Assembly: GCF_003334335.1 (NCBI RefSeq)
Contig: NZ_QOWQ01000003.1
Length of the DNA stretch: 64,000 bases
Origin: Escherichia coli
Lineage (GTDB): Bacteria > Pseudomonadota > Gammaproteobacteria > Enterobacterales > Enterobacteriaceae
Reading direction: 5' to 3' (one strand)
This document shows, piece by piece, positions 22,395 through 23,399 of the stretch. Within the stretch, counting starts at the first letter, position 1; every line of letters begins with the position of its first letter. The translations under genes were made by a program, and so were the position numbers. Under the pieces are notes generated by a model. It was given only the letters and a program-made list of their open reading frames with translations, was not told the origin of the DNA and searched no databases.

Positions 22395-22436
22395 CACTAC
22401 GCGCACGATGGTCAAGTCACCACGACTGTGCTATAA

Positions 22437-22459
22437 AATCAGTACGCAGTCACTAACGC
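22437..22459. promoter_or_regulatory. Degenerate TerB-like site in tus promoter region
   Basis: AATCAGTACGCAGTCACTAACGC where canonical TerB (AATAAGTATGTTGTAACTAAAGT, recalled) is expected; GTTGTAAC core not intact. Confidence 0.35.
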
Positions 22460-22469
22460 GGCCAAAATT

Positions 22470-23399
22470 ATGCCGCGCCACGACCCCGTAGGCCGACTCA
22501 ACACTACCTTTCGCCAGATGGAACAAGAGCTGGCTATATTTGCCGCTCATCTTGAGCAACACAAGCTATTGGTTGCCCGCGTGTTCTCTTTGCCGGAGGT
22601 AAAAAAAGAGGATGAGCATAATCCGCTTAATCGTATTGAGGTAAAACAACATCTCGGCAACGACGCGCAGTCGCTGGCGTTGCGTCATTTCCGCCATTTA
22701 TTTATTCAACAACAGTCCGAAAATCGCAGCAGCAAGGCCGCTGTCCGTCTGCCTGGCGTGTTGTGTTACCAGGTCGATAACCTTTCGCAAGCAGCGTTGG
22801 TCAGTCATATTCAGCACATCAATAAACTCAAGACCACGTTCGAGCATATCGTCACGGTTGAATCAGAACTCCCCACCGCGGCACGTTTTGAATGGGTGCA
22901 TCGTCATTTGCCGGGGCTGATCACCCTTAATGCTTACCGCACGCTCACCGTTCTGCACGACCCCGCCACTTTACGCTTTGGTTGGGCTAATAAACATATC
23001 ATTAAGAATTTACATCGTGATGAAGTCCTGGCACAGCTGGAAAAAAGCCTGAAATCACCACGCAGTGTCGCACCGTGGACGCGCGAGGAGTGGCAAAGAA
23101 AACTGGAGCGAGAGTATCAGGATATCGCTGCCCTGCCACAGAACGCGAAGTTAAAAATCAAACGTCCGGTGAAGGTGCAGCCGATTGCCCGCGTCTGGTA
23201 CAAAGGAGATCAAAAACAAGTCCAACACGCCTGCCCTACACCACTGATTGCACTGATTAATCGGGATAATGGCGCGGGCGTGCCGGACGTTGGTGAGTTG
23301 TTAAATTACGATGCCGACAATGTGCAGCACCGTTATAAACCTCAGGCGCAGCCGCTTCGTTTGATCATTCCACGGCTGCACCTGTATGTTGCAGATTAA
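22470..23399 (+). CDS. tus: Replication terminus-binding protein Tus (atypical N-terminus)
   Basis: 309 aa; matches Tus except first 8 residues read MPRHDPVG rather than recalled MARYDLVD. Confidence 0.9.

Follow-up and report, generated by a model that had tools for sequence, protein, structure and literature searches.

What does it mean when the TerB site and the first codons of the adjoining tus gene differ at 16 positions from every other Escherichia coli sequence with which they were compared, when the DNA on either side does not? The question is raised by the draft assembly GCA_003334335.1, of whose contig QOWQ01000003.1 the first 64,000 nucleotides, here called the window, were analysed. 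The fork trap to which this locus belongs is conserved across all E. coli phylogroups (PMC8347550). TerB, which stands 11 bp upstream of the tus ATG (PMC8707476), overlaps the tus promoter (PMC8347550, PMC8707476), and the binding of Tus to it represses that promoter (PMC8707476).

We describe the cluster of substitutions, its effect on TerB and on tus, its distribution among public sequences and the explanations that may be offered for it. From comparison of sequences we consider it probable that the cluster is an error private to GCA_003334335.1, contig QOWQ01000003.1, and not a property of the bacterium. A first-pass annotation of the window, made from the letters, had left the choice between a real change, an engineered one and an artefact open; the evidence set out below favours the artefact and leaves engineering without support.

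The substitution cluster, TerB and the 5' end of tus

The cluster extends from 22440 to 22492 and is not assigned to either strand; of its 53 bp, 16 are substituted when it is set against any other E. coli sequence examined. The altered positions are 22440, 22445, 22447, 22448, 22451, 22457, 22459 and 22462 in its first half and 22463, 22466, 22473, 22478, 22479, 22484, 22486 and 22492 in its second. In an ungapped comparison over 6.3 kb with MG1655 (NZ_CP032667.1) there were exactly 16 mismatches and all of them fell inside these limits. The first-pass annotation had estimated about 16 substitutions in roughly 60 bp with a bias from T to C, an estimate that proves accurate: relative to MG1655 the changes are nine T>C, three A>C, two T>A, one G>C and one A>G.

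The changes raise the GC content of the cluster from 36% to 60%. C is the new base at 13 of the 16 positions (P = 1.2e-4 for a random choice of base), and 15 of the positions are A:T pairs. Counted by reference base, 11 of 18 T, 4 of 16 A, 1 of 13 G and none of the 6 C were altered; T was altered far more than A (Fisher p = 0.045) and is the site of nine of the ten transitions. Read on the minus strand, all 13 changes to C become a guanine replacing A, T or C, and 11 of the 16 altered positions are adenines, 61% of the adenines on that strand of the cluster being altered. Against an expected background of 0.005 differences per 53 bp (~1e-4 per base), the Poisson probability of 16 or more differences is ~2e-50. 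This is the single dense cluster in the whole 64 kb window; it sits mid-contig, its flanks are perfect and the register is exactly kept.

The predominance of minus-strand adenines, at 11 of the 16 altered positions, is the feature that would suggest adenine mutagenesis on the minus strand by a reverse transcriptase, in the manner of a diversity-generating retroelement (DGR). Such an origin fails its defining tests, because five of the 16 changes are at non-adenines, no template repeat was found within +/-300 bp of the cluster or elsewhere in the E. coli genomes, and no reverse-transcriptase domain occurs among the genes called in window 1-33.4 kb; the rest of the window has a standard K-12-type gene content, which also counts against it. 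We give this explanation next to no credence. A quasi-palindrome or template switch was likewise considered and rejected: the longest match within +/-300 bp, direct and inverted repeats included, is 7 nt, a length at or below the mode among 2,000 simulated mutants with the same spectrum.

The place of TerB is at 22437-22459 on the plus strand, and Ter positions are numbered from 22437. It reads AATCAGTACGCAGTCACTAACGC where the canonical site reads AATAAGTATGTTGTAACTAAAGT, an identity of 16/23, and it lies, as a vicinal Ter should, 10 nt before the tus ATG (22470) and on the same strand as tus. Altered are Ter positions 4, 9, 11, 12, 15, 21 and 23. [quoted passage not shown] A functional Ter needs a G-C pair at position 6, the C6 of which flips into a pocket of Tus (PMC8707476); the G at 22442 is unaltered and this pair, on which lock formation depends, is therefore present. 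Among the 27 other loci fetched, TerB has four alleles, which differ only at Ter positions 1, 2 and 7, and the core is invariant in all 27.

According to the passage of PMC8707476 that cites Coskun-Ari and Hill, the change TA(9)>CG in TerB causes a significant loss of fork arrest. Since four core positions are altered, this one included, a real allele should be unable to arrest forks at TerB and should also have lost autoregulation. The same consequences had been proposed in the first-pass annotation; the reasoning is sound if the sequence is real, and it is this premise that an artefact, the explanation we favour, removes.

The presumed tus promoter, assigned by eye, occupies 22409-22437 on the plus strand and consists of TGGTCA (22409-22414), a 17-nt spacer and TATAAA (22432-22437); a consensus scan missed it because TATAAA lacks the final T. 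Both hexamers, the presumed -35 and -10, are unaltered, and the cluster begins 3 bp past the -10 hexamer. The ribosome-binding region, the 10 nt that separate TerB from the ATG (22460-22469, plus strand), has three substitutions, GGTTAATATT having become GGCCAAAATT.

The tus coding sequence (22470-23399, plus strand; 309 aa, Pfam PF05472) starts MPRHDPVG, as had been read at first pass and as the open reading frame confirms. Six substitutions fall in codons 2-8, with the results A2P, R3 synonymous, Y4H, D5 synonymous, L6P and D8G. The variant Tus is identical to the crystallised Tus (1ECR) at 305 of 309 residues (E = 2.9e-205); the differences are confined to residues 2, 4, 6 and 8, and residues 9-309 are the same in both, in agreement with the earlier remark that the remaining ~300 residues are canonical. 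The protein retains full-length homology to Tus (PF05472), the DNA-binding core included. Residues 2-8 would lie at the start of helix 1, at its N-terminal end and remote from the cleft that binds DNA. Four of the six coding changes are non-synonymous and two introduce prolines, and the patch is therefore unlike a selected homologue.

Four of the substitutions create an inverted repeat at 22457-22477 on the plus strand (CGCGGC at 22457-22462 and GCCGCG at 22472-22477; 6 bp, all GC), which in the mRNA would enclose the AUG. The predicted minimum free energy (MFE) of the 5' 87 nt is -18.6 kcal/mol for the variant as against -10.9 kcal/mol for the canonical sequence; simulated mutation with such a spectrum gives repeats as large as this by chance. 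Were the sequence real, TerB would no longer bind Tus, the tus promoter would be derepressed and translation would be hampered by the new GC hairpin over the AUG.

The canonical tus leader and early coding region (the MG1655 equivalent of window 22444-22530) is in its own right unusually unstructured: its MFE of -10.9 kcal/mol corresponds to z = +2.0, and 200 of 200 shuffled sequences fold at least as well. So open a 5' region would be consistent with selection for accessible translation initiation. The neighbours of tus in the window are rstA-rstB upstream and fumC-fumB downstream. In an unrelated E. coli contig, AATXBQ010000030.1 (GCA_013471655.1), rstA and rstB are separated by a gene for a 439-aa SDF-family transporter (locus 13684-15003), with a canonical TerB/tus following close downstream.

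Distribution of the allele and strain background

That the sequence departs from the E. coli reference, which the first-pass annotation had asserted, is upheld by direct comparison with MG1655 and with 5,424 complete E. coli genomes, none of which shares it. The best of these genomes is 94.7% identical over window 22300-22600, with all 16 mismatches remaining. All 5,424 match the canonical 81 bp around the site at 95% identity or more, and 2,317 match it at 100%; only 2 of the 5,426 matched places exceed one per record. None of the 16 window alleles is present in any of the 27 loci fetched from other assemblies. Exact searches with a 24-mer and a 28-mer from the cluster found neither in 100,044 species genomes (GTDB, one genome each), the 24-mer was not found in JGI metagenome contigs, and an 81-bp stretch across the cluster had no plasmid or phage match except to mislabelled chromosomes with the canonical allele. 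Among ~15 billion proteins a single contig, QOWQ01000003.1 (GCA_003334335.1), is on record for the exact variant Tus, which is listed solely under RCQ67637.1 and WP_114494356.1, neither of them a TPA accession. Across these collections neither the allele nor any of its variants is shared with another isolate.

Bacterial SNP clusters usually arise by recombination, and recombination tracts of ~50 bp are considered plausible in E. coli, both of which speak for a gene-conversion or recombination tract from a divergent tus/Ter homologue of another species, a plasmid or a phage. The searches, however, produced no donor in the 100,044 species representatives, the JGI metagenomes, plasmids, phages or E. 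coli genomes, and it is implausible that a donor should diverge by 30% over 53 bp and still match both flanks exactly. The bias to C and the prolines are, moreover, unlike a functional homologue, and even the vicinal Ter of Dickeya and Proteus is still 83% identical to TerB, as against 70% here (PMC8707476). We regard recombination as very improbable.

Outside the cluster the sequence is close to that of known genomes, and the first-pass description of the neighbourhood as reference-like is borne out. Window 12252-34808 (22.5 kb), the cluster aside, has four isolated SNPs relative to MG1655; the backbone has one SNP relative to VG48B2 and five relative to PEC1009, with no indels over 49 kb. 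Over the ~50 kb of chromosomal backbone outside the cluster there are thus one to five isolated SNPs relative to the closest complete genomes of the strain, which are of wild bird and farm origin. Although its backbone is almost K-12-identical, the genome is not K-12, since a prophage-like element lies in tqsA.

This element, a CP-933C-like prophage remnant or satellite-like element at 76-12251, is inserted in the 5' end of tqsA with its junction at ~12252. Its genes include an integrase (10847-12076), an Icd-like protein (9213-10235), an AAA_25/RepA helicase (6616-8013), an HK97 capsid (3358-4515), a portal (1533-2744) and an HNH nuclease (465-905), together with AlpA, DUF4222, SSB, PerC, protease and connector genes, and this part of the window has five scattered private differences relative to three related elements. 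Elements at the tqsA site are mosaic, their replication module being either AAA_25 or D5-primase. The truncated TqsA' (291 aa) is indexed in 9,885 blocks, from which it follows that tqsA is a very common integration site; a 44-aa ORF near tus is indexed in 3,349 blocks. Window 1-75 does not align with the related elements of other strains, which continue into terminase genes; here the short-read assembly probably broke off at a repeat or at the boundary of a variant. At ~8775 there is a 1-bp deletion relative to the three related elements, by which a small ORF of 83 aa becomes one of 76 aa; the 76-aa form is widespread (107 index blocks) and the deletion is therefore a natural variant, not an error.

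A clone to which the isolate belongs can be recognised from rsxC (45130-47256), which carries V37I relative to PEC1009; at least 23 contigs (37 index blocks) encode this exact protein. These public contigs show one to three differences per 8 kb, and the protein index records the variant Tus for none of the contigs of this RsxC V37I clone. The rsxC gene is polymorphic in length, with 2127 nt in the window and in PEC1009 and 2223 nt in MG1655. Contigs that share the Icd-like protein were also considered as clone-mates and were rejected, as their backbone differs, with 75-133 differences in 20 kb.

The background of the strain bears directly on the proposal of a deliberate or laboratory change, by oligonucleotide recombineering or by doped-oligonucleotide or nucleotide-analogue mutagenesis of the TerB-tus junction. 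A span of 53 bp fits a single recombineering oligonucleotide, and a dense, A:T-restricted spectrum of AT>GC and A>C changes resembles that of analogue-based mutagenic PCR. The host nevertheless has the look of a wild isolate: its tqsA holds a CP-933C-like element, and at least 23 sequenced contigs belong to its clone. There is no scar, marker or cassette, and no logic of design can be seen in changes that replace amino acids, bring in prolines and spare the promoter. Engineering of the site is, in our estimation, most improbable.

A second assembly offers a closer comparison. The contig DABAWV010000001.1 (GCA_012531195.1), hereafter the twin, is 100% identical to the window over the 17,431 bp compared (window 166-17,596) and shares five otherwise private variants: those at 8168, 10578 and 10664, the deletion at 8775, and 12451G. 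The last of these, C>G within the truncated tqsA, is not in MG1655, in VG48B2 or in three related island-bearing contigs; as it is also in the twin, it marks the strain or clone and has been reproduced in a second assembly. Coordinates in the twin equal 218,020 minus the window position, and its 217,938 bp are exactly positions 82-218,019 of QOWQ01000003.1 (218,100 bp), which implies that they are co-linear and that 218 kb contain no net indel. The twin is thus a re-assembly of the same isolate or else an almost identical clone-mate. Its accession prefix, DABAWV, is of the TPA type, given to third-party assemblies of deposited reads. The tus gene must stand at ~195.5 kb in the twin, which is apparently without the variant Tus, to judge from the protein index, in which that protein has no TPA accession and a contig count of one.

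A probable assembly-private error or a possible hypermutation

An error is favoured because the allele is confined to a single record, is apparently absent from the co-linear twin and shows the bias of a default base, and further because there is neither donor nor template, nor any sign of selection, and the density of mutation is biologically implausible. Were this so, the canonical sequence of TerB and the 5' end of tus would have been mis-reported over ~53 bp, either through poor base calls or through a wrongly resolved assembly path. The 13 changes to C may represent G calls on minus-strand reads, G being 'dark' in two-channel Illumina chemistry, which is presumably the platform that was used. 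In this chemistry G is the unlabelled base and is over-called at weak signal (PMC10415152). A local gap in coverage, bridged by low-quality read ends, could then have fixed such weak-signal G calls into the contig. Two other models of error were rejected, simple dephasing because the new base differs from the neighbouring base and four-colour crosstalk (A/C, G/T) because it explains just 3 of the 16 changes.

Against an error it must be said that the window is otherwise very good in quality, with neither an indel nor a second cluster in ~64 kb, and that a patch placed mid-contig, with its register kept, does not resemble the junk that commonly collects at contig ends. Where short reads cover a locus well, the assembly ordinarily follows the majority path, and an error path therefore needs a local failure of coverage. 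A very recent real mutation is also possible if the twin is a clone-mate and not the same isolate.

That the sequence is real rather than an error appears to us rather unlikely. One way in which it could be real, a very recent hypermutation in the isolate, we rate as unlikely; it would have involved a single error-prone or damage-templated synthesis of the minus strand over ~53 nt, perhaps at a fork arrested or fused at Tus-TerB, in which guanine was placed opposite T nine times, opposite A three times and opposite G once. Several features agree with such an event. The sequence is in a deposited, RefSeq-annotated record and the window is otherwise of high quality; the cluster is strand-coordinated, with T changed far more often than A (Fisher p = 0.045); and a 53-bp tract with its register kept fits templated copying. 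The cluster also runs from Ter position 4 to the permissive side, where, on the Tus-Ter model (PMC8707476), a converging fork would meet the fork arrested at TerB. Hypermutation of this kind would, however, require an error of ~30% per base, orders of magnitude beyond the known E. coli polymerases on undamaged DNA, and the allele is missing from all relatives, apparently including the contig that is identical over 17.4 kb. We know of no donor-less cluster of such a kind described in E. coli, and no signature of selection is visible.

A narrower proposal, that the patch is a strand-coordinated hypermutation scar at a fork arrested or fused at Tus-TerB, we consider decidedly unlikely. The minus strand would here have been the last single-stranded gap, copied or repaired with massive misincorporation of guanine. 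A natural TerB-null allele that escapes Tus autoregulation would then have been made in one step, and the patch would be the first evidence of a Tus-Ter barrier triggering localised hypermutation of its own site.

The choice has consequences in either direction, smaller ones if the cluster is an artefact. If real, the isolate would be the only known natural E. coli without a functional TerB and Tus autoregulation, and a unique case of local hypermutation at ~30% per base at a replication barrier. If the cluster is an artefact, as we think probable, a singleton protein derived from it is already in NCBI, RefSeq and UniRef (WP_114494356.1, UniRef100_UPI000DF4BBC8), and a dense patch of error inside an otherwise base-perfect draft contig can mimic a striking regulatory mutation.

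Comparison with known systems

The over-calling of G in two-channel Illumina chemistry gives the same default-base pattern as the cluster, in which existing C positions are untouched. Such errors are normally random in each read and are out-voted in assembly, whereas the cluster needs an added, local failure of coverage. The variable regions of DGRs are likewise dense, register-preserving patches in which mainly one base is altered, here the minus-strand A. Their targets, however, are C-terminal ligand-binding domains, whereas the cluster lies in a promoter and the 5' end of a gene and about a third of its changes are at non-adenines.

The window site lies where canonical TerB does, downstream of rstB and 10 nt ahead of the tus ATG, and agrees with it in orientation, length, register and G6, but it differs at 7 of 23 positions, four of them (9, 11, 12 and 15) in the core. 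Its identity to TerB is 70%, compared with 83% for the vicinal Ter of Dickeya and of Proteus and 78% for Edwardsiella Ter1 (PMC8707476). It also recalls the pseudo-Ter sites TerF, TerH, TerK, TerL, TerY and TerZ, which bind Tus weakly or form no lock (PMC8707476, PMC8347550), in being a Ter-like 23-mer with core mismatches, so that weak or no fork arrest would be expected of it. The pseudo-Ter sites, in contrast, are conserved across strains and are often intragenic, whereas the window site is private to one assembly and, unlike any of them, takes the place of a primary, high-affinity Ter.
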